Below, piece by piece: positions 1,986 to 41,377 of a DNA stretch of 62,469 nt. This DNA is from Victivallales bacterium. GTDB lineage: Bacteria; Verrucomicrobiota; Lentisphaeria; Victivallales; UBA1829. The stretch spans positions 1 to 62,469 of the forward strand of contig JAZUCU010000023.1 of NCBI GenBank assembly GCA_045639325.1, read 5' to 3'. Each line of letters starts with the position of its first letter. The stretch's first letter is position 1. The position numbers and the translations under genes were made by a program. The notes under the pieces were generated by a model. The model saw nothing but the letters and a program-made list of their open reading frames with translations. It was not told the origin of the DNA and did not search any database.

Positions 1986-4900
1986 TTATTTGACAGCCAT
2001 GATTTCGAACAATGCCAGCTCGGACGGAGCCAGTTTCGTCCGGAAAACGGTTCGTCCATTCCGCTTCATCACGGACAGAACTTGCGGACTGGCCAGACTG
2101 AGATCCGTTACTTTCACGGAACCCGGCACCGAAAATTCTCCTTCGCGGGTATGACCGATATTGTAATTCAGCACATAGAGATAACGGACTCCGTCCGCCT
2201 CAAGGTATGAGAACTGAAAATCGTTCTGCGAACAGGTCAGAGACGGTCGGATATGCCGTTTCAGGATCTTCCGGAATTCCGGAAGATTCGTATCCCACTG
2301 ATTTGGATTGTCGAAAACATACAGTGTTCCCAGACCCAGTTTTGCCTGTCGGCACAAAGCCGGTTTTCCATCGGCAAACCATCTGGAATACTTCCGATGC
2401 GTCCATTTTACCCCCGGAAAAGCTTTTGCCAGCAGACCATCTGTTTTCGGTTTGGCGTATTCATTGTAAACGCCCGGAGGAGCGAAGGCAATGACGGTCC
2501 CGCCGTTCCGCAGATAAGCCTCCAGTTTACTGTCCAGTTCTTTGGTCATAACAATTCCGTTCGGCACAAAGACGACCTGAATGCCGTCTAATTTCTGCCG
2601 TCCGTCCGCCACCAATTTTTCGAACCGGAAACAGTAGAGGATATTCTGCTGTTCCATAAATTCGGAGAATGCCTTGCACATGGTGTAAATGCTGCGTTCC
2701 GGCAAAGCATTCCGGCGGGCGGAATCCACTTCCAGAACGACGATATCGGGGGTGACCGATTTTGCGGTAATCGCCTTTTCCCCGAACCGGATGGCACGTT
2801 CCTTGGCAAGGCGCCAGAAGGAGGCGAAATAATTGAACGGCATATATCCGAGGCGGCTGTCCGTCAGCGGGAATCCGTACTGCCATTCATTGGGATATTG
2901 ATTCAAATCCTCATAAAACATATTCGGAGCGATGCTTCCGAACATGATCTGATGGCTGATTTCCCGCAAAGCGTGGAGTTTGGTTTCTGTCATATCGAAC
3001 ATGGTCTTATTGCCCTGCGTAGGTCCCCATTCGATGGAGCCCCAGGGAGTGCCGGATGCTTCCGACAGAGAACGCAGATATTTCGGATAAATCTTGCGGT
3101 CCCATATCTGATAGGAATGAAACAGTCCGATGGATACGTTGTCAAAAAAGGCGGGCATGTCAAACTCGGAAAAGGTATCCTGAAAATCGTGTCCGATCGC
3201 CAGCTTCCCGCCAAACCCTTTTTCCAGATTCTCTTTTGCCAGGTGGATGAATCGGTCAAAATACTCCCGGTGGACAAAGGTCTGGAATTCATACCGCAGA
3301 GCCGAAGGTTCGGCCGCAGGAGGAGGCGGCACGATTTTCTCGAAGGAAGCATAATCACTTTCCCATTTCCGGTTAAGCCCATCAATGGTGCCGTATTTCT
3401 TTTTCAGATATGCCTGAAATGCGGCACTGGCGCTTTTTCCATAGCCGGGCGCCATTCCGGACGGCAGTTCGATTTTGGATTCTCCGCCCAGATAAAACAT
3501 CACATTGCTGAAAAGATCAGGCCGCCTGCTCATGGCTTTCCCATACAGAAAGTAACGGTTGAAAATATAATCCTGTACCTTGCTGTTCCAGAAATTCAAA
3601 GAGAGGAACGGGTATTTCGGCCAGCCCCGGTAAACCGGCGTGATCTTATCGCCGGGGGTTCCGTCCGGTCTGCTGAAGAAAATGTCTTTATCCTTCCGGT
3701 TCCGTTCCAGCCACCAGAGGGGAACCGACATCCGGATATTTCCGGTTCCATGATTCATAAATGCCAGGCCATAGGGTGGCAGATGATGCTGTCTGACCAG
3801 CGTATCCGAGGTTTTCACACCATGGTTAAAAGCGTTCACACTAAAATATTCACCGTTTTTCGGGGCTCCGCCTCTGGTTCCCCCGACGGTTACGGCACTT
3901 GGCTGGATTCCAAGGGCACGCACTTTATCCAAAATGAATTCCGTTTGTTCGAAACCGGCTTTCGGCTCATTATGCAGCTGGGATATCGAACTGATGAAGA
4001 TTTCCGGTTTTCCGTTGCGGGTCCAGCAGCGCCGTGCCGGATCATACTGGAGCGACCAATTGTGATAGATCGGTTCCGACGGAATGAGCTTGTCTGCATG
4101 ATCCGCCGCATCCAGGTCTTTGCGGAGTTCAGCAAGTGTGCGTTCAAAATCAGCCAAAGCGGATTCTGCTCCGGTCTGGAGACGGTGTTCATCGGCGCCA
4201 TGCAGATAAGCATCGGCGAAAGCGAGCAGCGCCTGTTCCTGTTTCTGTTCGAGTTTCACGAATTTTCTGCGGAAATCCGGTGCGGCAGTATTCCGGTAGA
4301 ATGCGGATCGTTCCAGCAGTTCGATGCGTTCATTCTGGAATGCCGCAAGCATCATAGCCTCATTGTAACGGCGAGTCCATTTCTGGAATGATGCCTTGCC
4401 CAAACCGTTCCGGTAATCCGCGATGGAAGGAGTCATATAGAAATGACGGTAGTATTTTTTGGTAAAATTCCGCAGGGACTGCGATTTCAGATGAATCGGA
4501 TCGCGTCTCTGCCGGAAGTCCAGTTTCAGCAGAGTCCGGCCATCCAGAAGAATGCTTTTCCCGTTCACTGTCTTGTAACCCACCGGACCGAATTCCAGAA
4601 CGTTATCCAGCAGGAACGGATTCTTATCCGAACGGAACCGGATGGAAACCGGTTTTCCCGCAGAAGCTTTCAGCGGAATCCTGCCGCCAAGAGAAATATA
4701 ATCGCCCTGTTTGACCGGGACCTGTTTGCTGTATCCCCGCTGATTTTCCGTATACAGATTCAACATGGCAATATTGTCGATCCGTTTGTTGGACCAGTCA
4801 TATTTCAGACGGAAAGTATACCATTTTCCCCGTTCGATCCTGAAATCATCATACAGCAGACGGCGCCGGTATTCGATCTTATTGAGCAGCGCGACTTTTC

Positions 4901-6305
4901 CGTCCGCTCCGTCGGCATGGAAAAATCCGTCCCGGTCGATCAGGAATGCCGCAGAACAGTTTCCGGCAGCGTCTGAAAGTTCTGCGGACAGACTCTGACC
5001 ATTCTCAGGGCTGAACCAGTCGAATTCCACAATCCCGCTGTCCGTATCCGGCAGAGCAAACCTGATATCCGAAGATTTCAGACAGGGATCATCCACCGTG
5101 ATCTGTTCCCGGTTCTCCGTTTGGGCATAATCCCAGGTCGGGAAATTCACGATCCGGGCGTTTCCGCCGCCAGCATCCTCCGCTTTGGAAAAATCATGCA
5201 GTATCACCTTTTCCACAGGATATTCGGCTTTCCGTACAGTCCTCTCGGCGCTTTCCGGCAGCTGATATACTTTAACATCCTCGAATTCTCCCTGAAAGTA
5301 AGTAAACAAACCGAATGATTTTCCGGTAAACTCATCTGAAAACATATCTTCCGCAGCCAGTTCCAATTTGCCGTCACGGAATAATCTGAGCTTGCCGTCA
5401 CGGTTCTCCACCACAATCCGGTGTTTTTGTCCGGGATTCGCCCCGGAGGAAAAACCTTCCTGTATGGTCCGTGCCAGAATCTTAAAGGGGCCGGTTCTGC
5501 CAATGTAATTGTAGGAATTATAACCGGAGGCGAACCCGAAAATATAACCGGAAAGCCCCTTTTTCGCCGAATCGGAACAGATCATGGCGCTGAGATCCTG
5601 CGGGGAAGCGGAAGAACAGGTGTATTCCAAACGGATATTTTTCCCGATGGGGCGGGCAAACTTGATACGGCATTCATTCGTTCTGCCTCCGGATTTGACT
5701 TCCAGACGTCCGTTTTTGATTCGCCATTCCCCGGACTCCACGATCCAGTCCGGTCCCAGTTCTGTCCGGTTGAATTGGTCTTCAAAAACAAGTTTTCCTT
5801 CCGCTTCAACCAGCTTTTCCGCTTTCCGGATGCTGACATCATCAATCAGCATAAGCCCGCCATGGGTATTGAAAATCAGCCGGCAGACTCCCTTGTGTTC
5901 GGGCACATCGACGGAATATTCCACTGCCTGCCATTCCGGTACAGATTTATTCCTTCCAAAATAACGGGTCAGCTGCTTGCGGCCAATGATTTTATTGTTT
6001 TTATCACGGCAGATCAGACATACCTCTAACCATTTGGCATTGTCTTTTTTGTACTGAAAACGGAGAATATATTTTCCCGCCGGAAGATTCAGTCCGCCTT
6101 GTGACAGGGAACCTTTGACTTCAGCTGCGGCTTTTCCGTCGGCGGCATCCGGAGCAATCCGTCCGTCCACCGGAAGATTCCATCCGGCTGGCAGACCTTT
6201 CGGATTTTTTCTCTCAAAACTGCCATTGGACAGCAGATTGTCTGATGCTGCAGCAATACAAGCAACTGTCATGAGAGCCGACCATAAAATATTCTGGATC
6301 TTCAT
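1986..6305 (-). CDS. Very large secreted CAZyme-like protein: signal peptide, N-terminal CBM-like and LamG-like regions, C-terminal GH42-like trimerisation region
   Basis: 1439 aa. N-terminal signal peptide MKIQNILWSALMTVACIAAA. The C-terminus (ILYCFRFEK...DGIQVVFVPNG...GGTVIAF) resembles the GH42 beta-galactosidase middle domain. 17 bp downstream of a prepilin-like gene. Confidence 0.4.
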   Translation of the reverse strand: MKIQNILWSALMTVACIAAASDNLLSNGSFERKNPKGLPAGWNLPVDGRIAPDAADGKAAAEVKGSLSQGGLNLPAGKYILRFQYKKDNAKWLEVCLICRDKNNKIIGRKQLTRYFGRNKSVPEWQAVEYSVDVPEHKGVCRLIFNTHGGLMLIDDVSIRKAEKLVEAEGKLVFEDQFNRTELGPDWIVESGEWRIKNGRLEVKSGGRTNECRIKFARPIGKNIRLEYTCSSASPQDLSAMICSDSAKKGLSGYIFGFASGYNSYNYIGRTGPFKILARTIQEGFSSGANPGQKHRIVVENRDGKLRLFRDGKLELAAEDMFSDEFTGKSFGLFTYFQGEFEDVKVYQLPESAERTVRKAEYPVEKVILHDFSKAEDAGGGNARIVNFPTWDYAQTENREQITVDDPCLKSSDIRFALPDTDSGIVEFDWFSPENGQSLSAELSDAAGNCSAAFLIDRDGFFHADGADGKVALLNKIEYRRRLLYDDFRIERGKWYTFRLKYDWSNKRIDNIAMLNLYTENQRGYSKQVPVKQGDYISLGGRIPLKASAGKPVSIRFRSDKNPFLLDNVLEFGPVGYKTVNGKSILLDGRTLLKLDFRQRRDPIHLKSQSLRNFTKKYYRHFYMTPSIADYRNGLGKASFQKWTRRYNEAMMLAAFQNERIELLERSAFYRNTAAPDFRRKFVKLEQKQEQALLAFADAYLHGADEHRLQTGAESALADFERTLAELRKDLDAADHADKLIPSEPIYHNWSLQYDPARRCWTRNGKPEIFISSISQLHNEPKAGFEQTEFILDKVRALGIQPSAVTVGGTRGGAPKNGEYFSVNAFNHGVKTSDTLVRQHHLPPYGLAFMNHGTGNIRMSVPLWWLERNRKDKDIFFSRPDGTPGDKITPVYRGWPKYPFLSLNFWNSKVQDYIFNRYFLYGKAMSRRPDLFSNVMFYLGGESKIELPSGMAPGYGKSASAAFQAYLKKKYGTIDGLNRKWESDYASFEKIVPPPPAAEPSALRYEFQTFVHREYFDRFIHLAKENLEKGFGGKLAIGHDFQDTFSEFDMPAFFDNVSIGLFHSYQIWDRKIYPKYLRSLSEASGTPWGSIEWGPTQGNKTMFDMTETKLHALREISHQIMFGSIAPNMFYEDLNQYPNEWQYGFPLTDSRLGYMPFNYFASFWRLAKERAIRFGEKAITAKSVTPDIVVLEVDSARRNALPERSIYTMCKAFSEFMEQQNILYCFRFEKLVADGRQKLDGIQVVFVPNGIVMTKELDSKLEAYLRNGGTVIAFAPPGVYNEYAKPKTDGLLAKAFPGVKWTHRKYSRWFADGKPALCRQAKLGLGTLYVFDNPNQWDTNLPEFRKILKRHIRPSLTCSQNDFQFSYLEADGVRYLYVLNYNIGHTREGEFSVPGSVKVTDLSLASPQVLSVMKRNGRTVFRTKLAPSELALFEIMAVK

Positions 6306-6322: not shown

Positions 6323-7096
6323 TTATTGGTTTTTCTGCTTATAGTCGAAAAAGATTTGTGATGCGTTCGTAATGTTATAGTACAGGTTCAAATACGATAT
6401 GGGCGCCACATGCATATCAAGATACAGAATATTCGAATAATTGTTGTGTTTGGAAATCATTCTTGCGTGTACATCATCACCGGACCCGACTCCAATGACA
6501 TACGAAACTGAGCGGTAAACGTTGTTTTCCGTTGCCGGCTTGCCGCTGAATATTTCGCCGTTTCCCCGGCCTTCCAGAACATGACAACGCTGCGACATCT
6601 TGGACAGTTTATCGATCCGCCTGCGGTCCATTCCGCTACGCTGTGTCGTTTTATCATGGGCATTGCCGTTCAAGGTGTAGCTGGGACAGTCGATTTTCCT
6701 CGGATCCGCCGGACAGATGAACGGAGCTATTTTTGCCGCTTTACTCTTTGCAGTGGACCAGTCACTGTAATTTTTGATACTTCCCATGTAAATGGCAATA
6801 TAGCGGTACCAAGTGTTGCTGTTTGCGAACATGGCAGCATCCCAAAGCCCGTTACTGTCATTGAAATACAGGGAAAAGCCTGTCCCGATCTGTTTTAAAT
6901 TACCGGAGCACACGAGTGATCTTGCTTTTTGCTTTGCCTTGTCCAATGCAGGCAGAAGCATTCCAGCCAGAATCGCAATGATCGCAATCACGACCAGAAG
7001 TTCTATCAGTGTAAAAAACTGCCGCACAACATTTGTCATACCCCGTCCCTGCGATTGAGATTTCATTTTCTTTCCTTCCATGTTTATAGATTTCAA
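6323..7096 (-). CDS. Prepilin-type N-terminal cleavage/methylation domain protein (DUF1559-like pseudopilin)
   Basis: N-terminal motif [25 protein letters not shown]-terminal motif LYLDMHVAP matches the DUF1559 'xDGHV' signature. Confidence 0.7.
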
Positions 7097-7110: not shown

Positions 7111-8382
7111 TTACCCTTGTACCATGCTGCCGGATTTATCTTCGTAAACGGTTGTGTCGGCTGGATGGATCACATCTTCGTCGAATTCCAAACGGATCAC
7201 CTGGATCTCATCGTTCATCCGGTCGGCGGGAAGATTCCGCAAAGTGATTGCGGGCGTTTCGATTTCCGGGCCCGGTGTAACAGTGAGCTTTTCCCCGCTG
7301 TTCAGCAGAATCGCTTTCTTCGGCATCCATTGCAGCTCACTGAGCTTGAGCGATTCTCCGGCGGGGGGATTCAGCAGAATCAGATTCAGTTCGCGTCCTT
7401 CGCCGGTGCAGAGAATGTCGGAGGATTTGATCAGTCCGTAACACGGTTTGGCTGTCAACGCCACAGAAACCGTTTTATGCCACTTGCCGATACGGCTAAG
7501 GATCGAACGGGCTTTTTCCGGGAAACATCCGGTTTCATCGGGTCCGGCATTGAGGAGAAAATTGCCTCCGAGTGCGGTATAAAGCGAAATCTGGCGTTCG
7601 AGTTTGCGGACTGAAAAATAATCCTCGTCGCGACGGTATCCCCAACTGTATTGTCCGACTGAATCGCAAGCTTCGGTCGGTTTGGCAAACGGGAAGGCGG
7701 CTTCCGCTTGGAAATTGCGTTCCGGAGTGGAAAAGTCGCCCGGCCCGTAGCCACGGTTGTTGATCACCGCCGCCGGTTGGAGCGAATTGATCAGTTCGGC
7801 TACGGAGGGATCCTGCCACCCGGGGACATTCATATCCCACCAGATGCCGTGGATCGTGCCGTAATTGGTGCAGAGTTCGCGGATCTGCCGTTTCAGAAAA
7901 GCCATATAGGCGTCCATGTCGTAGAACTGCGGATCGGTGATGATCTCGTGATGCCGTCCGATATTCGGATAGGCGGGATGGTGCCAGTCCACACAGGAAT
8001 AATAGATTTCGAGCGGAAAATTGCGTTTGTGACATTCATCCGCAAGCATCCGCAGGACATCTTTGCCATACGGTGTGTTCATGATGTTGTAATCGGTTTC
8101 CTTCGTGTCCCACATGCAGAAACCGTCGTGGTGCTTGGCTGTGAAGACCAGGTATTCCATGCCGGTTTCCTGCGCAAGATCCAGCCACTCGACGGGATCG
8201 AATTTCACGGGGTTGAACTGCGCGGCATATTTCTGATACTCTGCGGCGGGGACGTGCAACCGCATCTGATGCTGTTCGTGGATGCCGCCGACGGCATAAA
8301 TCCCCCAATGGACAAACATTCCGAAACGTTTTTCGTGAAACCAGTGTTTTGCTCCGCTCAATTCCTGCATGACAGCCTCCAA
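7111..8382 (-). CDS. Alpha-L-fucosidase, GH29
   Basis: Motifs FGMFVHWGIYAV and TAKHHDGFCMWDT. Length 423 aa with no signal peptide. Confidence 0.85.
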   Translation of the reverse strand: MEAVMQELSGAKHWFHEKRFGMFVHWGIYAVGGIHEQHQMRLHVPAAEYQKYAAQFNPVKFDPVEWLDLAQETGMEYLVFTAKHHDGFCMWDTKETDYNIMNTPYGKDVLRMLADECHKRNFPLEIYYSCVDWHHPAYPNIGRHHEIITDPQFYDMDAYMAFLKRQIRELCTNYGTIHGIWWDMNVPGWQDPSVAELINSLQPAAVINNRGYGPGDFSTPERNFQAEAAFPFAKPTEACDSVGQYSWGYRRDEDYFSVRKLERQISLYTALGGNFLLNAGPDETGCFPEKARSILSRIGKWHKTVSVALTAKPCYGLIKSSDILCTGEGRELNLILLNPPAGESLKLSELQWMPKKAILLNSGEKLTVTPGPEIETPAITLRNLPADRMNDEIQVIRLEFDEDVIHPADTTVYEDKSGSMVQG

Positions 8383-8481
8383 TCTTATCGGAATCGGAAA
8401 ATCTTCCGTTGAAATTTTTTTTCAATGTGATATATTATAATCCAAAATCCGGAATTTGAAATGTTAAGAAAGGGGATTTTT

Positions 8482-9276
8482 ATGTCAAAAACGTGGAAAG
8501 ATAAAGTCGAATGGTGTGATCTGGATGCTCTCGCCATCCGGATTCTGATGTTTGGATATTCCCAAAACATTCTGCCTGAAATCTGGTATCACCCGAACCG
8601 GATCAGTCCGTTCTGGCGTTTTTACTGGGGCGCCTCGGACGGGGCGAATCTGATATTCCGGGACAATGTCGTGAAACTGAACCGGGAGACGGTGGTGTTT
8701 GTGCCGCCGAACACCCCTTTCGAAACCCGGGCGGACAAACCGTTTTCCCAATTTTATATTCATTTCTCATGGTTCGGACCAGCATCGCCGTCCAAACCGG
8801 TCATACTGTCGGCAGATGAAGAAAAAGTTCTGCTTTCATCCGTCCGGGACTGGGATGAAACGTCCGAACAAATGGTTTCCCTGCATGCCCATGCGGTTCT
8901 GTTTCATTATCTGATCAAGCTTCAGCCGCATCTTCCGGAACCGGTGTCGGCAATCGACCTTCGGATTCAGAAAGCCGTTCTCATGATGGAAGACAAAGAC
9001 CGCAGACTTTCCCTGAAAGAGACGGCAAAGGCGGTTTCCATGTCCTACGATCATTTCCGGGATACCTTCAAAAAAGAGATCGGCCTTGGCCCCTGTGAGT
9101 ACAGGATGATGCGGCGGATGAGTTATGCGCGGGATCTGCTGCTGTCGAGCAGCCTTCCCATTGAGGAAATCGCGTATAAGACCGGATTTTCCAACCGTTT
9201 TCATTTTTCCAAGACCTTCAAAAAATTTTTCAAACTGCCGCCGGTGGTTTACCGTAAAACCCGCCTCAATGACTGA
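8482..9276 (+). CDS. AraC-family transcriptional regulator
   Basis: C-terminal HTH_AraC (IEEIAYKTGFSNRFHFSKTFKKFF). ATG at 8482 has an AAAGGGGA RBS. Divergent from the GH29 gene. Confidence 0.75.
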   Translation: MSKTWKDKVEWCDLDALAIRILMFGYSQNILPEIWYHPNRISPFWRFYWGASDGANLIFRDNVVKLNRETVVFVPPNTPFETRADKPFSQFYIHFSWFGPASPSKPVILSADEEKVLLSSVRDWDETSEQMVSLHAHAVLFHYLIKLQPHLPEPVSAIDLRIQKAVLMMEDKDRRLSLKETAKAVSMSYDHFRDTFKKEIGLGPCEYRMMRRMSYARDLLLSSSLPIEEIAYKTGFSNRFHFSKTFKKFFKLPPVVYRKTRLND

Positions 9277-12866: not shown

Positions 12867-12918
12867 GCGCCGGTTCCGGAAATCCGATATGGTGTGATAC
12901 AGATCACCTTATTTCTTC
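12867..12918. repeat. Right copy of the ~55-bp direct repeat (left copy at 9668-9724)
   Basis: Read directly. Overlaps the 3' end of the phosphatase gene. Confidence 0.65.
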
Positions 12919-14606
12919 AACTCCAACGTATCGTGTACCGTGCCATCCATATTCAACGCACGCATCACGATCTTGCCCGGTTTCACATCAAAATGAAGTG
13001 CAATGCCCGGACGCCGTTCCGTTCTCGCCGCGCCGCCGCTGACAACCACCACCGGGAACTGCCATTGCGGATCTGATTCAACCCGTTTATAGACATGGGT
13101 ATGACCCGCAACCCAGAGATCAAGCGGATATTTCCCATTTTTGAAAACATCACGCACCATCTTCTGTGTCCGGGGCAGCATGTGATTGAATCCATCGCGT
13201 TGACCATGCGGTGCCACGTGGGCAAAGACAATACGGAAATCCGCCGTCTGGAATTCAGGCGTTTTGACCGCTTCTTTCAGCCAGGCAGTCTGTTCTTCCA
13301 GCAGAGTATCAAGCTCATTCAGATAGGTATAATCTTTATAACAATTGGGATCATTTTTGGAAAGATGATGTCCCGTATCAAACACAATGTAACACACTTT
13401 CCCCATACGGAGCATCCCGTAACTTTTCTTGTTCTTGTACGCAAAATGATCCAGCCATTGCTGAGCTTCCGCACCCTCAAATTCATGATTACCACGGGCA
13501 TAAACAATGTACATATTGCTGGGAATCGCTTTCAGAATGCTGTCAAAAATGTCACTGCGGAAATGATTGATCACCCCGTGCATGTCACCCACATGCGCAA
13601 AGAAACTGCATTTTGCCAACTCCGGAAATGCTTTCTGAATGTTCTGCGTGCGAGCAAGATTTTTCTGCTTCGTCGAATCCTGTGTGTCGCCCATCAGGAA
13701 AAAGCTGTAACTCTGACTCTTTCCTGACCAGGTCCGGAATGTATGGGTTTCTTCCACCGCAAATTCCTTGAAAAACGGCGGTAAACGGCGCAAAGCACGG
13801 TATTCATACTCCGTATCCGGCTTCAATCCGGTCAGATGAAAACGAAGGATCGGCGTTTCGTCACAAATCTGACCGCCGCGCAGAATCTGTACTTTTTTCC
13901 AGACTTTGGCTCCGACGGCACGATATTCCAATTCAAGCGGTTGTCTTCCGTTAAGCAGATAAGTGATTGTGACAGAATCCGGTGCCGGATTGGTCAGGTA
14001 AGGACCGAATGCGATCCCCGGCTCCGGCAGACGGCGCGGCGGAATATCCGGATCGCTGCATGCGGCATAAAAATCGATAGCTGCCTGCCAGGATCCTGCC
14101 CCAGGCTTGACATAGAAACTCAAGTCATTACGCCCCGCTCTCAACTTCACTGCAAAAGTCCGGTCTGTGGCGGACGGCGGCCAATTGTCATTACCGCCCA
14201 CATCGGTCCCGCCGAAATAAGTTCCATTACAGAAGCCATCGATCCACCAGTCTGCCGCTACACCGATATAAATCGTTTTCGGTTTTTCAGCGGTAATGAC
14301 ACCGGCAAGAATTGCCCGGTTATTACGATCGTATTTTTTTTCCAATGCAAGATTCAGAGACGGAGCCGTTTTCAAGGTAACGGCTTTCACTTTTGATTTG
14401 CCGTTGAATGGAATCAGGTAATCATCTTCATACCGTGCAGCGGCGGCATCTTCTGCTGTAAATTTATCGGAACGGAATAATTTCCATTCGACAGGCAGGA
14501 CGACCCCTTTAATCGGTTTCTGTTCATTTTTCATAGCAGCTCCATTGAGATTGGCAACGACACACCCTGCCGCAAGGGCAGCCGTCAAACATCTTTTCAT
14601 CTTCAT
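12909..14606 (-). CDS. Secreted purple-acid-phosphatase-like metallophosphoesterase
   Basis: Signal peptide. Motifs GDMHG, GNHEF and AGHTHVY (calcineurin-like), with an N-terminal PAP-type beta domain. Confidence 0.7.
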   Translation of the reverse strand: MKMKRCLTAALAAGCVVANLNGAAMKNEQKPIKGVVLPVEWKLFRSDKFTAEDAAAARYEDDYLIPFNGKSKVKAVTLKTAPSLNLALEKKYDRNNRAILAGVITAEKPKTIYIGVAADWWIDGFCNGTYFGGTDVGGNDNWPPSATDRTFAVKLRAGRNDLSFYVKPGAGSWQAAIDFYAACSDPDIPPRRLPEPGIAFGPYLTNPAPDSVTITYLLNGRQPLELEYRAVGAKVWKKVQILRGGQICDETPILRFHLTGLKPDTEYEYRALRRLPPFFKEFAVEETHTFRTWSGKSQSYSFFLMGDTQDSTKQKNLARTQNIQKAFPELAKCSFFAHVGDMHGVINHFRSDIFDSILKAIPSNMYIVYARGNHEFEGAEAQQWLDHFAYKNKKSYGMLRMGKVCYIVFDTGHHLSKNDPNCYKDYTYLNELDTLLEEQTAWLKEAVKTPEFQTADFRIVFAHVAPHGQRDGFNHMLPRTQKMVRDVFKNGKYPLDLWVAGHTHVYKRVESDPQWQFPVVVVSGGAARTERRPGIALHFDVKPGKIVMRALNMDGTVHDTLELKK

Positions 14607-14721: not shown

Positions 14722-17700
14722 TCACTTGATTGCGATCAACACAAATCCTTCGCCCGGAACTGTGAGTGTATTCCGATCCAATTCCTTGTCTGTCAACGGA
14801 TCATACCATTTTGCCTGCGGGCTGACCCCCAGCTTTTTCCAGTCGATCTGTAAATCAACCTTCGCCGCATTCTTATTCCAGTTGCCAACGGTCAGCAAGA
14901 CGGAATAAGGCATCGGCGTTTTCCAGGAATAACGGGAGGCATAGACTCCGCGCACCTTGGATTTCACCGCCTGATCCATCCAGTAACCGGTGAACTTTGC
15001 CTGATTGAAATGCAATTTCCGGCGGACATCCCAGAACGGGAAGAGTGTTGTTTTTTCATTGCCGGAATGATATCCCATCAGATTCAGGTCATGCAGATAA
15101 AGAACGGTTGCAAGACGCTCAAAATTCTTCTGACCGATGAAACGTTCTTTCTGCTTTTTGAGTTCCGGTGAACTGCCCATCACACGCGCATTCTGTGCAA
15201 TCATCATAATGCCCACCCCGCGGATTTCCGGATTCAGCGCAGACTGATATTCTTCCTTGGAAATTCCATGGAGATAATGCCCTTCCGGATTCCGCAGAAC
15301 CGGGAAATACTGTTCTTCCCCCGGAACCCACAAATCCGCAAAGTCATGTACAAAAGGATAATAGGCATTGTGCGCATGGAGCCACAACGCACGGTTGTAT
15401 TTTCTTGTCAACTTGTAAATGCGCAGGAAATATTCACGGAGCGCCAACGCCGTGGAAGAACGGAATTTTTTCCCGAATGCATCAAGTCCGCTGCAACCGT
15501 GAAGTTCATTGTTGCAACTCAATACATGGCAGATATCAAAATAAATCCCGCCGACTTCCGGATAATCCCGGAACAATTTATCTGCCCGGTATGCCTGCAA
15601 ATCTCCACCCTGCGTCTTTCCGCAACAGGGTTCCACATAATATCGTTCATTGGTGAATTCATCTTTCGCACCCCATTTCACACCCGGTGTAACTGCCCAT
15701 TCCGGATAGAAATAATCGTATTCCGGAGAAAGACGTCCGATATGTGCCGGCATGGAATAAACCAGGTCCATCACGCCTTTCTTCTTCCATCTCTGGAAAT
15801 GTTTACCGAAATCCGCCGGATGCGCCGGGAGCAATGTGGTATAATGCAGAATGTTGGAGGCATCTTTGATACCCGCCGATCCATTCCAGCCGCTGATACC
15901 GCAATCGACAGCCCCTGACCGCCAGGCATGATACTGCCATTCGCGGTAATTCATAGCCAATTTACGCGGCGGTGTTGCCTGGAATACCATGGTGTAAGAC
16001 GCAGGCTTCTTCAAGACCGCTTTATCCTGAATCATCTCAATCCGCACAAAAGCTTTGCCGCCTTCCTTACGCAGGTAAATCTGTGCCCGGTTCGGGTCGG
16101 TCACCCAGTTGGCATCGGATTGACACCACCATGCCAGACCGCGTTTCTGACCCGTCAGCCAAAGCAGGGATGCCCGTTCATCAACCGTCCACTTCAGAGA
16201 TGCACGCCCATTCTTCCACGGAACATAGTACGGATTCAGAATATAGTTGGATGCATCCGCAGGCATCGACCAGGTCAGATTCAAGGATTCGATATCAACT
16301 CCGGTTTTCGGCGGAGTCATTGTCAAATCCCAGCGGTACATACCATCAAACCACACTTCGCCGCGACAGGTGAAGTGAATGGCATCCCATTTGCCCGATG
16401 TGGTGAATTCTGCACGGTCACCATAATTTTTACCCGGCTTGACTGCATCCCAAATCACCGCTTTGCCATTGAGCAGAAGGGCAGGCGGAGCTGACAACAC
16501 CGTTTTGCCGTCAACCGTCATATTCACAGGCATCGGACCTTTATCGAAGGTATAAGTCCGGTTGCCGGCAATGTAACTCTTACCTTTCACAACTACTTTC
16601 TGCCAGGGAACGGGAACGGAATCATCAATGCCGACTCTTGTTTTGAATGGTGTCATATCCGGCATACGGAAATTCATTTTCCGGTTGAAATCACCCAGCG
16701 TACCTTCCAGTGAATACGTCGTATTTTCTTTCAATCCGACAGGCAGGGGGAAAGTGATCTGCTGTGTTTCACCGGTCATACGGAACGCTTTTTCTGCAAG
16801 AACTTTACCCTGCGGATCAAGCAGACGCACCTTGCCATCTTTCGCACCGGATGCTTTATTGACGGCGAAATCAACCAGCAGCAGATTTTTCGATGCCCGG
16901 GCGGAATAAGTCATGTTGAACGGTTCCTGCACCTGTACAAAATTCTCTGCACGATAGATTTCTCTGCCGACCGCATTACATACCGTATAACGGATGATAT
17001 TTCTGCAGGAAGGCAAGGTAACTTTCCATGTATTTTTCAGAAGGTCCCCACTGTTTTTTCCTGCCGCTCCGGTTTCCGCAAGCCATTCACCTTTGCCGCG
17101 CAAATTTTTACCACCCTGCAATTTGAGTTCCAGTGACGCCTGAGTCGGTGTTCCGTAACTGAGGAAACGCACCGCTTCGCTTGCACTGCCGAAAATCAAC
17201 TCGCCGAAAAATTCTTCGGAAATATATCCTTTGAGATAACCGTAAACATAATTCCAGGTGTTGTAATTGGTACGGTCTTTCCAGTTGGTGTAACCGAAAT
17301 TCCCTTTGATTGCCGTATCTTTTTCAATCTTGCCGCCCAATGCTGCCAGCGGAAGTGCCACTTCCACACACCAGCTGTCTTTGGTATAACTTCCCGATGC
17401 CGTCGCGCCGGAATCCCAGGCGGCTTTCCCTGCCAGTGAATCATAAACCGCACCATTGGCATTGAAAATAAACTGACGTTTCTTGCCATCCGTGCCGGTT
17501 ACATGAAATTCCACACTGTCATCATCCCACAATTCGCCGTCTTTTTTCGTGACTTTATGGCGATATGCCGGTGCATCCGCCTGGAATGCCAGATAAAGGT
17601 GGGTCTTGCTGTACTGAAGCATTGCCTTTGCCGTCGCAACGTGATGACACTGGGATGTATTCAGGTGATTCACAATGGGAAGAACAGTTGCCTTGCCCCA

Positions 17701-18534
17701 TTCCTCTTTATCCAGTTTGCCGTCAATCTTGACAGCCTTTGCAGAATAAGGAATCGTGGCTTTGCCCGGTTTGATGTTGATTTCAAAATTACGCGGGAAA
17801 TATTTATCATATTCCTTCCCGATTTCGTCTGCGGTAAGACAACGGTCATAAATTTTCAAATCATCATACGCCGTCACCCAGGCAGGATTGTGCCGCCAGC
17901 CAACTTGACTGTTCAAGGTGATCAATGTGCCCTTGACCGTCTTCGGCAGAACCATATCGGCAGGAAGTTTCTTGGTCTGATTGATGGACACCAGTTTCGC
18001 ATCCACATAAAGTTTCATTTCTTTTTCATTCCAGACAGCATCCACTTTGTGCCAGGTGTCTTTTTTCCAGTCAGCAGCGGCTACAACGGTACAGGAATGA
18101 CTGCCGGACTGCAGGTAGAAGACAATTGCATTTTTACGGTCGCGATACTTGTAAATGACCATCCGGTACTTGGAAGGCGCAGAACTCACTTCAAAAAAGG
18201 AATGGAAATATTTTGTATCGGAAAGATCCCAGTTCTGCAAGTTGATCCACAGAGAAACACTGCCCCGGTCCGGTCGGAAATTTTTCGCCAGAGAATACGT
18301 AACCCGTTCTTTGTTATTCATGCAGACAGAATTGCCGTCGCCCTTGATATTGGGGAACATACGGAGCTGAAGATCTTTTGCGATCCCGCCGACTCCGATC
18401 GTTTTCGAGGCATGAATATCCGGTGTGGTATTGTATTTATCAAAATTGCTGTACAGAAGCAAGCCCGGTTCTGCGGCAGAAAGAACACTTGTGATTCCCG
18501 CAGCACAAAGAATGGTAAGAGATTTATGGAACAT
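14722..18534 (-). CDS. Very large secreted protein with LamG/concanavalin-like and glycoside-hydrolase-like (DUF4091-like) regions
   Basis: 1270 aa with a signal peptide. 12 bp downstream of a prepilin-like gene. Domain assignment is from motif impression only. Confidence 0.35.
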   Translation of the reverse strand: MFHKSLTILCAAGITSVLSAAEPGLLLYSNFDKYNTTPDIHASKTIGVGGIAKDLQLRMFPNIKGDGNSVCMNNKERVTYSLAKNFRPDRGSVSLWINLQNWDLSDTKYFHSFFEVSSAPSKYRMVIYKYRDRKNAIVFYLQSGSHSCTVVAAADWKKDTWHKVDAVWNEKEMKLYVDAKLVSINQTKKLPADMVLPKTVKGTLITLNSQVGWRHNPAWVTAYDDLKIYDRCLTADEIGKEYDKYFPRNFEINIKPGKATIPYSAKAVKIDGKLDKEEWGKATVLPIVNHLNTSQCHHVATAKAMLQYSKTHLYLAFQADAPAYRHKVTKKDGELWDDDSVEFHVTGTDGKKRQFIFNANGAVYDSLAGKAAWDSGATASGSYTKDSWCVEVALPLAALGGKIEKDTAIKGNFGYTNWKDRTNYNTWNYVYGYLKGYISEEFFGELIFGSASEAVRFLSYGTPTQASLELKLQGGKNLRGKGEWLAETGAAGKNSGDLLKNTWKVTLPSCRNIIRYTVCNAVGREIYRAENFVQVQEPFNMTYSARASKNLLLVDFAVNKASGAKDGKVRLLDPQGKVLAEKAFRMTGETQQITFPLPVGLKENTTYSLEGTLGDFNRKMNFRMPDMTPFKTRVGIDDSVPVPWQKVVVKGKSYIAGNRTYTFDKGPMPVNMTVDGKTVLSAPPALLLNGKAVIWDAVKPGKNYGDRAEFTTSGKWDAIHFTCRGEVWFDGMYRWDLTMTPPKTGVDIESLNLTWSMPADASNYILNPYYVPWKNGRASLKWTVDERASLLWLTGQKRGLAWWCQSDANWVTDPNRAQIYLRKEGGKAFVRIEMIQDKAVLKKPASYTMVFQATPPRKLAMNYREWQYHAWRSGAVDCGISGWNGSAGIKDASNILHYTTLLPAHPADFGKHFQRWKKKGVMDLVYSMPAHIGRLSPEYDYFYPEWAVTPGVKWGAKDEFTNERYYVEPCCGKTQGGDLQAYRADKLFRDYPEVGGIYFDICHVLSCNNELHGCSGLDAFGKKFRSSTALALREYFLRIYKLTRKYNRALWLHAHNAYYPFVHDFADLWVPGEEQYFPVLRNPEGHYLHGISKEEYQSALNPEIRGVGIMMIAQNARVMGSSPELKKQKERFIGQKNFERLATVLYLHDLNLMGYHSGNEKTTLFPFWDVRRKLHFNQAKFTGYWMDQAVKSKVRGVYASRYSWKTPMPYSVLLTVGNWNKNAAKVDLQIDWKKLGVSPQAKWYDPLTDKELDRNTLTVPGEGFVLIAIK

Positions 18535-18546: not shown

Positions 18547-19317
18547 TTACTGTTTTAACGGTTCAAAGTCCGGACGTCCCAATGCCCATACATTGTTGCA
18601 GGGCGCGGCGTGTCCATCCACATAAAGCAAATTGGATTTACCCTTGAAGAATCGTTTGTCATTCACTGATGTACCATAATGATGTCCCGGCGCACTGTGC
18701 GGGTTGGCAAGAAAGTAGAAATTGCCCCAGGATTCCATGATAACATAATATCCGCTGGGCTGACCGGGTCTTGCACTTGCTGAATCCCCATTCATAACAA
18801 GGGCGGAAGGTCTTTTGATCTGAGATGTTTTGCGCCATTTTTCCATACTGGCTCCGTTATGAGATGCACCACCCAGTTCATTGCCGTTATAACCATAATT
18901 GTAATATACGGAAAAATCGTCCACGATCATGGTCTTTTCCGTATGTTTCTTCCCGGCGGCAGTGGAATTTTCCTGATCGTAAGGAAAGGTACAGAATTTA
19001 CGGGCAGTCGGGCACACAAAGGTTTCCGGTGAAATCTTATAATATTTGTACAGAATCTGAAGCCAGTTGTTTTTGAACGCTTTTATGGAATTGTAAGTCC
19101 CCAGATGAGATGTATCAGATGTAGGAATAAAGTACCCGCCGAAATCCATTGTATACGTTGTAATCCCCAAACCAATCTGTTTTTCATTGCTCAGACAGTT
19201 GTTGCTTCTGCCCGATTCCTGCGCTTTGCTCAATGCCGGAAGAAGCATTGCCGCCAGAATGGCGATGATTGAGATGACGACCAACAGTTCAATCAATGTG
19301 AATTTACTGTGTTTCAT
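18547..19317 (-). CDS. Prepilin-type N-terminal cleavage/methylation domain protein (DUF1559-like)
   Basis: [29 protein letters not shown] ... [10 protein letters not shown]. Confidence 0.7.
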
Positions 19318-19359: not shown

Positions 19360-20457
19360 TCAATCCAATTTACGACAGCTGCCGCGTTCGTTGATTTTCA
19401 AATCATACTGGTAAAATCCGGAACGGATCAAACCGCCCGTCAGTTCCGCATCATTGAACAAGGATAGCGCTTTCTGTACGAAACACTCCAGCGCCTGTTC
19501 CACCGTTGTCATACGCGGAAACAAATCCGGCGCACAGTCAATACTGATCAGCGATATATCTTCCGGTATCTTCAAGCCCGCTTCCAACGCCCCGAGCCAG
19601 GCTCCCGATGCAAAAGACATACCCGGCAGAATCACTGCGGTCGGGCGTTTTTCCAACGGCATCGCGGCGATCTGATGCATGCTTTGACGCGCCCAGTCAT
19701 GCCATACGATCTCTTTTCCGCCGATAAAACAAATCCCTTCCGGCAGATGACACGCAACAAAACCGCTGTTACGTTCTTTCAACCCGCAGTCATTCGCCAA
19801 CCCCGGATAATCCTGGCTGATATACGCGATCCGGCGGTGGCCAAGCTCAGTCAGATACGCAACCGCATTCTGAATCCCTTCCGGCTTGGACCCTACATAA
19901 CAACGGTTCTGGGTTTGAAGCTGATCACTCCACACGTTCAGACAACACACCGGAATATGTTTCAATTCCGCAGAGTTGAGTATCTCGATCACGTGACTGT
20001 CCATTGTCGTCGCAAGCAAAGCGGAACATTGATTCTGATGCAGTTTCTCCAGTACCTCATCCTTATCAAGCGCCGAAGACATCACCATCAGATTCCCTTT
20101 CCCCGCACTCAATTGACGGGTACATTCGGAAAAAATACGCAAGTCATAATAACTGGAAAATCCCCCGGTGGATCCGGCTAGATACCCCACTTTCAACACC
20201 GCATCATGGGAATAAGTTACATACGTCCCTCTGCCATGCTGCTGAACAATCAGATTCTGTTCCTTGAGGATCTGCAAACTTTTGCGCACGGTCAGATGAT
20301 TCACCCCGAATGAGGCAGCAAGTCGGGATTCTGCGGGCAGATTGGTGCCGCACGGAAATTCCTTATTCAGAATCCGTTCTTTCAAATTCTCTGCAATCTG
20401 CAGATACAAAGGCACACTCTGCCTTCTCCGGATATGGCGTTTCTCTGACGCTGTCAT
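19360..20457 (-). CDS. AraR-type regulator (GntR-family HTH plus LacI/PBP1-like sugar-binding domain)
   Basis: N-terminal GntR HTH (LPAESRLAASFGVNHLTVRKSLQIL) and a C-terminal periplasmic-binding-protein-like fold. Length 365 aa, close to B. subtilis AraR. Confidence 0.55.
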   Translation of the reverse strand: MTASEKRHIRRRQSVPLYLQIAENLKERILNKEFPCGTNLPAESRLAASFGVNHLTVRKSLQILKEQNLIVQQHGRGTYVTYSHDAVLKVGYLAGSTGGFSSYYDLRIFSECTRQLSAGKGNLMVMSSALDKDEVLEKLHQNQCSALLATTMDSHVIEILNSAELKHIPVCCLNVWSDQLQTQNRCYVGSKPEGIQNAVAYLTELGHRRIAYISQDYPGLANDCGLKERNSGFVACHLPEGICFIGGKEIVWHDWARQSMHQIAAMPLEKRPTAVILPGMSFASGAWLGALEAGLKIPEDISLISIDCAPDLFPRMTTVEQALECFVQKALSLFNDAELTGGLIRSGFYQYDLKINERGSCRKLD

Positions 20458-20625: not shown

Positions 20626-21603
20626 ATGATAAGAATGAGTGATATAGCAGAAAAAGCGGGCGTCAGCAGAACAACAGTCTCTTTCGTGCTGAGCGGGCGT
20701 TATAAGCAGGATTTGAAAATATCAGAACCTATTGTCAAAAGAGTTCTGGAAACAGCCGAACAGATGGGCTATGTGAAAAACGAAATAGCCAATGCCGTCG
20801 TGACCGGGAAAAGCCGCGTGATCGCAATATTGTCTTATTTTGACGACTATATGATGCCGACGATTCGCGGCTGTATGGAGGAAGCACAGGAATACGGCTG
20901 TATCATCAAACTGATCTCTCTGAAGAACGGATTCAATGAAGCGATCCGCAAAGCACTGGAATTCCGTGTCGGCGGCATATTCGCTCTCAGTCAGCCGGAA
21001 TCGAAAAAAGAAATCGATCCGAAATATCTCCGTACTGGCATCCCATCCATCGGATTGAAAGAAAATACCGGTAGAATGGCTTTCGATCAAACGGCAAGTG
21101 CCATGCTCGGGACGGAACATCTGATAGAAAAAGGTCATAAAAAAATCCTCTTCCTCGGGTGCGAAAATGTGATCGCGCTCGAACGCGAAAACGGATACCG
21201 GAATGTAATGCAAAACCATGGTTTGCAAATGGATGTCATTCGCATGGCAGATAAAGATGCCCCTCTCGATCCTGCGGTTTTCGACCGGATACTGTGCGAA
21301 ATCAAGCCCGATGCCATTCAATGCTTCAGCGATTTGCTCGCATTCAAAATCATGCGGGAATGTTATAAACGCAGACTCTTTCTTCCGGAAACCTTTTCCC
21401 TGCTGGGATTCGGGCATACTCCCGCAAGCCGGGAAACCGCCCCACGCCTCACAACCATTGACGAACCGTATTTTGAAACAGGAAAAATCATGTTCCACCA
21501 GATTTATGATTTGATCGAACATGGTACGTATAAAGAACATATTCCGTTGACAGGATCTCTGATTCCCGGAGAAACTGTCGCAGATAAAAAAGAAAACAAT
21601 TAA
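20626..21603 (+). CDS. LacI-family transcriptional regulator
   Basis: N-terminal HTH (MSDIAEKAGVSRTTVSFVLSG) and a PBP1 sugar-binding domain. Confidence 0.75.
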   Translation: MIRMSDIAEKAGVSRTTVSFVLSGRYKQDLKISEPIVKRVLETAEQMGYVKNEIANAVVTGKSRVIAILSYFDDYMMPTIRGCMEEAQEYGCIIKLISLKNGFNEAIRKALEFRVGGIFALSQPESKKEIDPKYLRTGIPSIGLKENTGRMAFDQTASAMLGTEHLIEKGHKKILFLGCENVIALERENGYRNVMQNHGLQMDVIRMADKDAPLDPAVFDRILCEIKPDAIQCFSDLLAFKIMRECYKRRLFLPETFSLLGFGHTPASRETAPRLTTIDEPYFETGKIMFHQIYDLIEHGTYKEHIPLTGSLIPGETVADKKENN

Positions 21604-21618: not shown

Positions 21619-22293
21619 ATGAGTTACAGTACAAGAAAACAGCAGTTCACATTGATCGAGTTGTTGGTTGTGATCGCCATCATCGCCATCCTGGCAGCAA
21701 TGCTTCTGCCGGCACTCAACAGCGTGAAAGATCAGGGCAAATTGAGTTCCTGTCTCAGCAATAACAAGCAGTGTATCATGGCAAACATTTCCTATTCCCT
21801 CGACTGCAACGATTTTCTTGTGCCGAATACCCCCAGCGGATATTGGCAGTTTTTAGGACACCTGAAATTGTCTGGCGATGGTTATACATACAGTAACCTG
21901 GGACATCTTTATGAATCCGGTCATTTGAAAAACGGTAATGTCATGAAGTGCCCTGCCGCCACATACTCCGGCAGTGAATTGAATAAAAAAGATGTGGAAC
22001 CCCGAGAATACGGCTTTTGGTACTTCCTGGATGCCGGTTGGGGATCCGGAACAAGTGACAGAACACGGTTCTATAAAAGAGTGAAAGACTGCAAAATCAA
22101 AATCATTGCTTCAGACGTCCCGACATATGGTACCGGGGGAAATGACAAACGTTCCTCCCACAAAGAACGTTACAACGTCCAATTTGTCGATGGCTCTGTT
22201 CAAACCAAACGGGTACCGCGCTCCTTTATTGCGCAAACAAATCCGACTTCTCAAGCCAACGTCAAAAAGATTTACGAATATCTCGAAAAATAA
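21619..22293 (+). CDS. Prepilin-type N-terminal cleavage/methylation domain protein (DUF1559-like)
   Basis: [26 protein letters not shown] ... VQFVDGSV. Confidence 0.7.
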
Positions 22294-22313: not shown

Positions 22314-23252
22314 ATGAAATATCTCCATCCTATCCGGATATTTGCCGCAGCAGTATGCGTGTTTTCCTGTTCCGCATTTGCTCAGGGAGTCACAATTCCG
22401 GCAGAAGCCGTCAAACAATACGGTTTGAAACTTGAAAACATCGAGTTCAAAGTAAAAGGGTTGAAAAAAACGTATCATTTTGTCCATATCACGGACCTTC
22501 ATGTTATGCCCGATGATATGTCTGAAGTGCGTAAAGACCGTCAGAAAATTTTTGAACACCGCCGCGATATCCGGTTCGCCAACCCGAAAACCAAGTTGAA
22601 ACCAAGCATCCTTTGGAAAAAATTACCGGATTTGCTCAATCCATCCGGCGCAGATGCCATCTTCTTCGGCGCCGATCTCTGCGATTTCGGTTCAATAAAA
22701 ACCTATGATACTTTGATCCCCGTTTTCAAACAATTCAAAATCCCCTTCATCTACCTGCGTACAAGCCATGATATTTCCACCTGGATCCTTACCGTACGGA
22801 ATCAGAAAGAGGTTAATGAACGTTCCAAATTGATCGATGGACATCCCGATCTGCCGGTCATTGAATACGATGACCTTCTCATCATCGGTTGGGATAACAA
22901 TGAATACAACATCAAAAAAGGAACCCTTGAGAAATTCAAAAAATATTACGCAAAAGGAAAACCGATCCTGTTTGTGATCCACGTCCCCATCACCATCCCA
23001 GGTGACGGCAGTCAGGAATCCATGAATAAAATCGGAATCAAACACGTATGGAACAATAAAAATATCCGCCCGAACCAATACACTAAGGAATTGTTTGAAC
23101 TGGTAACACGGAAAGATTCTCCCGTAATCGGGATCGTCGGCGGTCATGTGCATCGTACCTGGGATGGTTTGGTGAACGGACAAATCCGTCAACACATTTT
23201 CAGCCCCGCATTTGAAGGCAATATCGGAATTATCACAATCAAACCGGAGTAA
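22314..23252 (+). CDS. Secreted calcineurin-like metallophosphoesterase
   Basis: Signal peptide. Motifs HITDLH, GADLCD and GGHVH. Confidence 0.55.
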   Translation: MKYLHPIRIFAAAVCVFSCSAFAQGVTIPAEAVKQYGLKLENIEFKVKGLKKTYHFVHITDLHVMPDDMSEVRKDRQKIFEHRRDIRFANPKTKLKPSILWKKLPDLLNPSGADAIFFGADLCDFGSIKTYDTLIPVFKQFKIPFIYLRTSHDISTWILTVRNQKEVNERSKLIDGHPDLPVIEYDDLLIIGWDNNEYNIKKGTLEKFKKYYAKGKPILFVIHVPITIPGDGSQESMNKIGIKHVWNNKNIRPNQYTKELFELVTRKDSPVIGIVGGHVHRTWDGLVNGQIRQHIFSPAFEGNIGIITIKPE

Positions 23253-23262
23253 TCATACGATC

Positions 23263-39238: not shown

Positions 39239-39244
39239 TTTTTA

Positions 39245-41352: not shown

Positions 41353-41377
41353 GACTCCTTGAATAAGACATCAAGCC

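Follow-up and report, generated by a model that had tools for sequence, protein, structure and literature searches.

Pilin-like genes distantly related to the DUF1559 / H-X9-DG families precede exported glycan-active proteins in sugar-regulator cassettes of Lentisphaerota

Background

The function of the DUF1559 (PF07596, 'SBP_bac_10') / H-X9-DG prepilin-like proteins is given in the literature as unknown or as that of a putative solute-binding family (PMC10632474, PMC2754498, PMC4807772), and single planctomycete genomes are reported there to carry 68-74 copies. We describe four pilin-like genes, apparently distant relatives of these, in a 62,469-nucleotide stretch of DNA from a Victivallales bacterium (contig JAZUCU010000023.1, positions 1 to 62,469; hereafter the window), each of which is directly followed by a gene for an exported protein. 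They resemble the described families in the class III (prepilin) signal with the conserved stretch after it; the C-terminal H...DG[H] of these families is exact in one copy, altered in two and without His in the fourth (Table 1). They differ in that the heads of the window type are shorter (median about 235 amino acids (aa) after the cleavage site, as against about 300 in Planctomycetota), and in that the Lentisphaerota genes are paired with exported carbohydrate-active enzymes (CAZymes) and sugar regulators, whereas the planctomycete members are not.

A comparable gene order, with a non-pilin protein of large size (about 1000 aa) and Sec-type export encoded behind a pilin, is found for the minor pilins associated with PilY1/PilC tips and for the GspK-type tips of type II secretion. 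The type IV pilus filament carries the large Sec-exported PilY1/PilC protein at its tip, where a minor pilin holds it by direct contact between pilin and protein (PMC13533445). The present cassettes have one pilin each instead of three or four minor pilins, are many per genome and have no machinery nearby, and the partners are glycoside hydrolases (GH), lyases or proteins with carbohydrate-binding modules (CBM). No PilY1-type Pfam domain was detected in the partners in scans of the window and of the sampled followers described below.

The polysaccharide utilization loci of Bacteroidota share with the cassettes a substrate-responsive regulator, CAZymes and one non-enzymatic envelope marker, and are likewise numerous within a genome. 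The marker here has a pilin fold, however, and the regulators are cytoplasmic LacI, GntR and AraC proteins, not hybrid two-component or ECF/anti-sigma systems. Among the 37 open reading frames (ORFs) of at least 181 aa in the window, no Pfam domain of a SusC/TonB-dependent transporter or of SusD was found.

Pilins have been linked to glycans in other bacteria. Ruminococcus albus, for example, has cellulose-binding pilins. Polysaccharide-associated type IV pilins have been described in Caldicellulosiruptor bescii (bioRxiv 10.1101/614800), a modular minor pilin, PilB, in Streptococcus sanguinis (PMC8179133), and dextran-binding fibres in planctomycetes (PMC5394234). These pilins are one or few in a pilus operon, whereas here a distinct pilin-like gene belongs to each enzyme cassette. 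Lipase foldases and LipB/CpaB of Acinetobacter, which are chaperones of type II secretion substrates, are small membrane-anchored periplasmic proteins encoded one-to-one beside the enzyme that they serve (PMC4713064), a gene order similar to that of the present pairs. There is no relation in sequence or fold, the proteins in question having a pilin fold with invariant F+1 and E+5.

The arrangement is neither a type II secretion operon, nor a SusC/SusD locus, nor a PilY1 module, since defining features of each were looked for without success. Its parts (pilin-like proteins with class III signals, CAZymes, LacI/GntR regulators) are of known kinds. No description of the pairing was found in open-access papers or in bioRxiv.

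Results and discussion

Cassettes in the window

The four pilin-like ORFs that an earlier note on this DNA had pointed out are all present in the ORF list and its translations (Table 1). The note had further claimed that a co-directional gene follows each of them closely. This is so in all four cases, with gaps of 17, 12, 20 and 24 base pairs (bp) for copies 1 to 4, a ribosome-binding-like site at each of the four junctions and, in the site scan, no promoter-like or terminator-like site within the four short gaps. The immediate followers (1439, 1270, 312 and 811 aa) were also rightly described as exported, a Sec-type signal peptide being recognizable in all four by eye and by heuristic. Their description as very large applies to those of copies 1, 2 and 4, and does not extend to copy 3, which is immediately followed by a protein of 312 aa only. 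As regards chance within the window, three of the four followers are among the six genes of at least 800 aa out of about 37 genes (hypergeometric p about 0.01).

The 811-aa follower of copy 4 is predicted (pLDDT 94) to consist of an N-terminal TIM barrel, beta-sandwich domains and a LamG domain, in this order. The barrel resembles GH71 alpha-1,3-glucanases (E 4e-14, TM 0.68-0.73 on the target) and GH99 endo-mannosidases, and as modelled the protein is enzyme-like.

Three of the four pilin-like genes adjoin a LacI or GntR sugar regulator, and for copy 1 a divergent AraC gene lies one gene away. The CAZymes located together with the LacI, GntR and AraC regulators are of the GH29, GH42-like, GH123-like, GH127 and GH71/99-like kinds. 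The best promoter-like sites of the cassettes are found in the divergent intergenic regions between regulator and operon. The one between pilin-like gene 4 and its regulator with a GntR helix-turn-helix (HTH) contains, besides promoter-like sites, the palindrome ACTTGTATTACAAGT. The copy 2 region has a single strong minus-strand terminator-like site (9791-9746), which follows a gene for a 933-aa protein. A gene for a cytoplasmic GH29 protein, probably of the same operon, stands before copy 1, so that the pilin-like gene adjoins the exported protein rather than the operon start.

The unit is composed of a regulator, a pilin-like gene and an exported glycan-active protein, optionally with more enzymes. 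The one-to-one and unclustered pairing that had been claimed is borne out in that each cassette has one pilin gene, away from secretion machinery; it breaks down for the 565-aa and 1277-aa exported proteins of the window and for the second and third enzyme paralogues of one other locus (L172, below), which are unpaired. At the level of the cassette and of a joint function of its members, we take the window to hold four copies of a Lentisphaerota-specific glycan-degradation cassette, with a probability of roughly 0.8.

Enrichment of the pairing in other loci

Eighty loci from species-representative genomes (numbered with the prefix L) were ascertained via the pilin motif, and a single simple ORF rule was used for all genes. 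The ORF caller and the signal-peptide heuristic are crude and were applied alike to cases and controls, and the counts refer to the sampled loci. In the Lentisphaerota loci, the co-directional follower is at least 600 aa long for 12 of 31 pilin-like genes and 17 of 245 controls (odds ratio (OR) 8.5, p = 7e-6), and at least 1000 aa long for 4 of 31 and 3 of 245, respectively. A signal peptide is found in 21/29 followers of pilin-like genes, as against 49/292 for controls (OR 13, p = 1e-9). Carbohydrate-active or carbohydrate-binding Pfam domains occur in 13-14 of 18 Lentisphaerota followers, among them GH78, heparinase II/III-like, polysaccharide lyase, GH123, DUF4838/GH67N/CBM9, LamG, pectate-lyase-like and esterase. 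A LacI, GntR or AraC homologue is encoded directly upstream of at least 18 of 45 Lentisphaerota pilin-like genes, compared with 32 of 467 genes overall (OR 19, p = 3e-12). The same gene order recurs on contigs with proper gene calls and precomputed Pfam annotation.

Neither Verrucomicrobiota (2/19 vs 19/246) nor Planctomycetota (1/23 vs 11/230) exhibits an excess of large followers in these loci. The usual follower in these two phyla is a small lipoprotein of about 140-180 aa with an LxGC lipobox (L016, L038, L039, L048, L058, L068, L076, L077). An exported follower as such is enriched in both (7/13 vs 34/197, p = 0.005, in Planctomycetota; 5/10 vs 33/209, p = 0.016, in Verrucomicrobiota). This suggests that a pair of a pilin-like protein and an exported partner extends across the Planctomycetes-Verrucomicrobia-Chlamydiae (PVC) superphylum, and that the enzyme pairing is its Lentisphaerota version.

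An independent metagenome set also has an excess of exported followers (12/22 and 5/5 vs 72/368; p = 5e-4 and 3e-4). Large followers are not enriched among its loci (L085-L164; 1/51 vs 14/374), which are of mixed taxa and mostly on contigs of 1-4 kilobases (kb). The failure of the length test is attributed to this contig size, the signal-peptide test being tolerant of truncation.

Enrichment beside large secreted CAZyme genes, on which the earlier note had made its proposal depend, is present in Lentisphaerota and absent in Planctomycetota and Verrucomicrobiota, where the small lipoprotein follows instead. The pairing is not due to chance, and it is lineage-specific.

A reading without any specific coupling would have the pilin-like genes as abundant mobile paralogues which were duplicated along with enzyme genes or merely share sugar-regulated promoters. 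The family is indeed huge: a profile search of 1.84 billion representatives matched 57,001 of these clusters (50% identity) at E <= 1e-30, and 247,049 of them at E <= 1e-10. Since the sampled loci have 2-5 copies per 20 kb, some adjacency is to be expected, and the loci were ascertained through the pilin gene itself. Such hitch-hiking is nevertheless very improbable in our estimate, considering the large enrichment over same-locus controls for follower length, signal peptide and upstream regulator, the replication of the signal-peptide result in a second collection, and the retention of the pair down to 35% enzyme identity across rearranged contexts.

The pair as an inherited unit

The family of the 811-aa enzyme has 119 homologues, all of them named Lentisphaeria or Kiritimatiellae. 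In all eight independent Lentisphaerota contexts that were readable (the window, L081, L084, L165, L170, L172, L173 and L174), a pilin-like gene is directly upstream of the first enzyme copy. These contexts span enzyme orthologues at 60-66% identity and homologues at 35-42%, and the flanking genes and regulators vary. For example, a Lentisphaerae genome bin has an enzyme orthologue that is 60% identical over its full length and a pilin that is 53% identical, next to a GntR regulator that is not orthologous. In L173 the pilin gene is internal to the operon (GntR, GHL6, GH95, pilin, enzyme), yet still directly upstream of the enzyme gene, and in L003 and L009 pilin-enzyme, pilin-enzyme arrays occur in tandem. 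A pilin-like gene together with the gene for an exported glycan-active protein that follows it thus forms a non-random, heritable unit.

Within the clade of the window, L081, L084 and L165, the pilin heads track the enzyme (head identity 82/50/44/36%, enzyme identity 87/60/66/36%), and in L172 and L173 they do not. General co-divergence of pilin head and enzyme was rejected: the permutation p of 2e-4 is driven by a single orthologous clade, which was ascertained through the pilin, and other pilins beside homologous enzymes show no greater similarity to one another. Of the idea that each pseudopilin works with its cognate enzyme, the part that stands is the non-random heritable unit in Lentisphaerota; beyond it, the heads co-diverge with the enzymes in one clade only, and no docking motif was found (see below).

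Two loci of this enzyme family are unusual in structure. L172 (6100-15908) has two tandem pilin-like genes and, behind them, genes for three paralogous enzymes of 823-842 aa, only one of which is paired with a pilin; a 271-aa signal-peptide protein is encoded between the second and third enzymes, and cas1, cas2, cas4 and cas7 (CRISPR-Cas) are nearby. In L170 (6001-8565), an 854-aa ORF (P0222) joins a 63-residue upstream extension, the first approximately 85 pilin residues from FTLIE, and the enzyme from about residue 150. It was considered as a 'Rosetta stone' fusion and set aside, being found on a single contig at 5.6x coverage and most simply explained by faulty assembly or by the loss of DNA between two neighboring genes.

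Identity and fold of the pilin-like proteins

All four copies have, after a short basic leader, the class III N-terminus FTLIELLVV[IS]..IIAILA[AG]ML[LM]PAL, with E+5 in each, and all four match Pfam N_methyl and NCBIfam TIGR02532 in profile searches. Copy 1 probably starts at ATG 7066 (or 7039) and not at TTG 7096, which gives a 17-residue leader before FTLIE. A six-frame motif scan, whose pattern misses copy 1, revealed no pilin-like gene in the window other than copy 1 and the three copies that it matched. Pilins in the PDB align with the N-terminal helix of these proteins. The AlphaFold2 model of copy 4 (pLDDT 83) shows a long N-terminal helix and a beta-sheet head, i.e., the lollipop fold (alpha-1 helix on an antiparallel beta-sheet head) of the type IV pilin / pseudopilin superfamily.

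The label 'DUF1559-type', used in the earlier note, holds loosely, as only copy 4 exceeds the Pfam threshold (33.7 bits against PF07596, cut-off 23.3, on profile positions 2-30 of 268 only). With 21.6 and 19.0 bits, respectively, copies 1 and 2 do not reach this cut-off, and copy 3 has no match; most homologues carry PF07596 in precomputed Pfam annotation. An NCBIfam search yielded no match to TIGR04294 at E <= 0.01 in any of the four. In the family alignment (A2), H197, D208, G209 and H210 are invariant or nearly so, with D208 invariant, and the head is hypervariable (mean column identity 22%) behind an invariant N-terminus. Homologues are named 'prepilin-type processing-associated H-X9-DG protein' or 'DUF1559 family PulG-like putative transporter' in the sources. 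Judged by sequence, the four proteins appear to be distantly related to the paralogous prepilin-like proteins (DUF1559 / H-X9-DG) of the PVC superphylum. The GspG equivalog TIGR01710 was rejected as an assignment, with scores of 28-38 bits (cut-off 88.85) on the N-terminal part only, and no gsp genes were found near the pilin-like genes in Pfam and NCBIfam scans of the window.

Nearly all related loci are from genome bins of Lentisphaerota, Verrucomicrobiota and Planctomycetota, where the genes form large PVC-restricted paralogous families. The nearest named relatives are from genome bins of Lentisphaerota / Lentisphaeria. The best identity among GTDB species representatives is 38-46%, and the closest proteins of all are ENA metagenome proteins at 97-98%, on contigs of 2-5 kb. 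One database protein, P0006 (276 aa), matches the N-terminal 36% of pilin-like protein 4 with 97% identity and has in addition a phage-integrase Pfam domain; the pilin 4 gene of a related strain may have been interrupted or mis-called beside an integrase.

Residue -1 and prepilin processing

Prepilin peptidase cuts at a site with Gly, rarely Ala or Ser, at position -1. Strom and Lory are said to have reported in 1991 that the Gly before F+1 in classical prepilins is required for cleavage. In the window, copies 1 to 4 have F, K, Q and S, respectively, at -1, thus neither Gly nor Ala in any copy. The cleavage sites of the four would lie at 7039-7015, 19305, 21643 and 32132.

The same freedom is seen throughout the lineage. 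Gly is at -1 in only 5 of 48 Lentisphaerota copies (about 10%), with almost any residue in the others, and in 12/117 among the 120 closest homologues of copy 4. In contrast, the same scan found G or A in 22/22 Verrucomicrobiota and 25/25 Planctomycetota copies. The residues that follow are strongly conserved in Lentisphaerota: F+1, T+2 and E+5 are present in 45 of 45 copies, and L+3 and I+4 in 44 of 45 each, under a pattern that does not require them, and about 25 N-terminal residues are nearly invariant across these 45 copies. Either the peptidase has a relaxed specificity in Lentisphaerota, or no cleavage takes place. Freedom at -1 and the enzyme pairing are found in the same lineage.

With the -1 residue unconstrained, prepilin peptidase might make no cut at all, and the protein might then be an uncleaved periplasmic chaperone or holdase for the neighboring enzyme, anchored N-in in the inner membrane and forming no filament. 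The exact coincidence of the free -1 position with the enzyme pairing (Gly in 5/48 as against G/A in 22/22 and 25/25) is in favor of this, and membrane-anchored chaperones encoded beside their cognate secreted enzymes are established (PMC4713064). However, the stretch from F+1 to E+5 and the approximately 25 N-terminal residues are too constrained for a mere anchor and typical of pilin processing and assembly, and Pfam and NCBIfam reveal no similarity to known foldases. We consider such a chaperone improbable.

A possible adaptor role

The pilin-like gene is strictly in the position directly upstream of an exported protein wherever it stands in the operon, the pairs occur in tandem arrays, and synteny is kept at the level of the pair; these three features argue for an adaptor. 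We propose, with a probability of about 0.4, that a cassette-specific minor pilin couples the neighboring exported enzyme to a shared machine, either a type IV filament or a type II secretion system. Within a cassette, the genes would be co-transcribed once its cytoplasmic regulator (LacI, GntR or AraC) senses its sugar, and the pilin-like protein would enter the inner membrane via its class III signal-anchor. A shared type IV filament machine, of the type II secretion or type IV pilus type and encoded elsewhere, would take it up as a minor, cassette-specific subunit. Its variable head would then hold the neighboring exported enzyme on a pseudopilus or short fibre, leading to passage through the outer membrane or to display. 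The role would be akin to that of the minor pilins carrying the large Sec-exported PilY1/PilC protein.

Several observations weigh against this proposal. Exported enzymes without a pilin of their own are found both in the window (565 and 1277 aa) and in L167, L169 and L172, and in the sampled loci the same is true of every second large protein with a signal peptide. The family has no enzyme linkage in Planctomycetota and Verrucomicrobiota, and the one Kiritimatiellae context of an enzyme homologue that was examined has no pilin upstream. The pilins of L172 and L173, although encoded beside enzymes of the 811-aa family, resemble copy 4 no more than random paralogues do. Domain scans revealed no filament machinery genes in the window, and processing and filament assembly are uncertain because -1 is neither Gly nor Ala. 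Lastly, docking by a C-terminal strand, as in PilY1, was suggestive by eye and not significant by count: a shared strand-like motif occurs at the C-terminus of 5/29 partners vs 25/274 (p = 0.14), and it was dropped.

In the main rival reading, which we hold to be possible if rather doubtful, the variable head binds the target polysaccharide of the cassette and not the enzyme, and a retractile fibre or pseudopilus brings the glycan to the exported enzymes. The pilin would be a pilus-based stand-in for SusD and surface glycan-binding proteins, its adjacency to the enzyme resulting from co-regulation only. One pilin per operon, i.e., per substrate, rather than per exported enzyme is consistent with this, as are the hypervariable head on an invariant N-terminus and the occurrence of the same family without enzyme neighbors in Planctomycetota and Verrucomicrobiota. 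Moreover, pili-like fibres of Planctomycetes bind dextran, the proteins involved not being known (PMC5394234, PMC12673574), and Kiritimatiella lacks TonB-dependent glycan uptake systems (PMC5148204). Co-regulation alone, however, requires neither a fixed position nor tandem pilin-enzyme arrays, and the pilin stays directly upstream of the exported protein even where it is operon-internal (operon 1 of the window, L173, L169). Furthermore, domain and structure comparison of the head revealed neither a carbohydrate-binding domain nor a known lectin fold. The uncleaved chaperone and the hitch-hiking of paralogues are both less likely than either the adaptor or the glycan-binding pilin.

The adaptor proposal may be extended to a 'cargo code', in which tens to hundreds of interchangeable pilin-fold adaptors, each co-induced with and dedicated to one exported glycan-degrading enzyme, load it onto or through one and the same machine (a type IV filament or a type II secretion system), after processing by a prepilin peptidase specific to the lineage, for which Gly at -1 has ceased to be a requirement. 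We regard this extended form as unlikely. If true, it would amount to a pilus-borne, substrate-inducible system of enzyme display and secretion.

Significance

In guts, oceans and sediments, PVC bacteria have an important part in the breakdown of complex and sulfated glycans. At least some of them lack the SusC/SusD or TonB-dependent logic of Bacteroidota, and the cassette is a possible handle on how they deal with polysaccharides. The pairing also offers a first functional handle, and a testable function, for one of the largest orphan protein families. Concrete gene pairs are at hand for tests, e.g., pilin 4 and its GH71/99-like enzyme, with eight orthologous or homologous pairs. The order of regulator, pilin-like protein and exported enzyme may serve as a practical marker of glycan-degradation loci in Lentisphaerota, and the unconstrained -1 residue is a natural experiment on the rules of prepilin processing.

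Table 1. Pilin-like genes and cassette members of the window
Feature	Position	Strand	Remarks
Pilin-like gene 1	6323..7096	-	Residue -1 Phe; C-terminal H-X9-DM; N_methyl/TIGR02532
1439-aa exported protein, GH42-like (weak match)	1986..6305	-	17 bp downstream of pilin-like gene 1
GH29 alpha-L-fucosidase, without signal peptide	7111..8382	-	14 bp upstream of pilin-like gene 1; probably same operon
AraC-type regulator	8461..9276	+	Divergent from the GH29 / pilin 1 / 1439-aa operon
Pilin-like gene 2	18547..19317	-	Residue -1 Lys; C-terminal motif without His
1270-aa exported protein, LamG_3 + CBM9 + GH123_N	14722..18534	-	12 bp downstream of pilin-like gene 2
565-aa exported metallophosphoesterase	12909..14606	-	115 bp after the 1270-aa gene; without own pilin-like gene
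GntR-HTH regulator, periplasmic-binding-protein-type sugar-binding domain	19360..20457	-	Directly upstream of pilin-like gene 2
Pilin-like gene 3	21619..22293	+	Residue -1 Gln; exact C-terminal H-X9-DG
LacI-family regulator	20626..21603	+	15 bp directly upstream of pilin-like gene 3
312-aa exported calcineurin-like phosphoesterase	22314..23252	+	20 bp downstream of pilin-like gene 3
GH127 beta-L-arabinofuranosidase-like protein, without signal peptide	23212..25077	+	Probable start 23263
1277-aa exported protein, N-terminal CBM_4_9	25093..28926	+	Last gene of the pilin 3 operon; without own pilin-like gene
Pilin-like gene 4	31416..32144	-	Residue -1 Ser; H-X10-DG; sole copy above the Pfam DUF1559 threshold
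811-aa exported glycoside-hydrolase-like protein	28956..31391	-	24 bp downstream of pilin-like gene 4; C-terminal LamG (LamG_3)
GntR-HTH regulator with sugar-binding domain	32315..33349	+	Divergent from pilin-like gene 4

Other features of the window

The 933-aa protein (9811-12612, minus strand) has AIDA-type / strand-loop-strand repeats and an OmpL47-type domain, with no detectable signal peptide and no autotransporter barrel. Its gene may be the last of the pilin 2 operon, because the strongest terminator-like hairpin of the region (9791-9746) follows it. A gene at 33353-35728 (minus strand) encodes a 791-aa protein without a signal peptide, in which a BD-FAE / alpha-beta-hydrolase esterase is fused to a WbsX/GH99-like domain; it adjoins an arabinose/fucose-isomerase-like gene and an AraC regulator.

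Four tandem genes for lipoproteins or signal-peptide proteins of 309, 332, 370 and 395 aa are found at 38309-42565 (minus strand), and a strong terminator-like hairpin at 38292-38263. The 370- and 395-aa proteins are paralogues with a weak PEGA / carboxypeptidase-regulatory-like C-terminal domain. The stretch 42000-44000 is low in GC (0.39) and contains a 63-aa ORF (43451-43642, minus strand) that, by first impression, seems to resemble the C-terminal end of a transposase (...RFWWALKYEDIK).

The co-directional block at 45570-55830 (plus strand) encodes proteins with an excisionase-like HTH (110 aa), a zinc ribbon (625 aa) and an FHA domain (509 aa), and three more that are lipoprotein-like. 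Two peptidases of the block, one trypsin-like (375 aa) and one of the thermolysin-like M4 kind (634 aa), share a similar N-terminal stretch, M.DY.W..ER....

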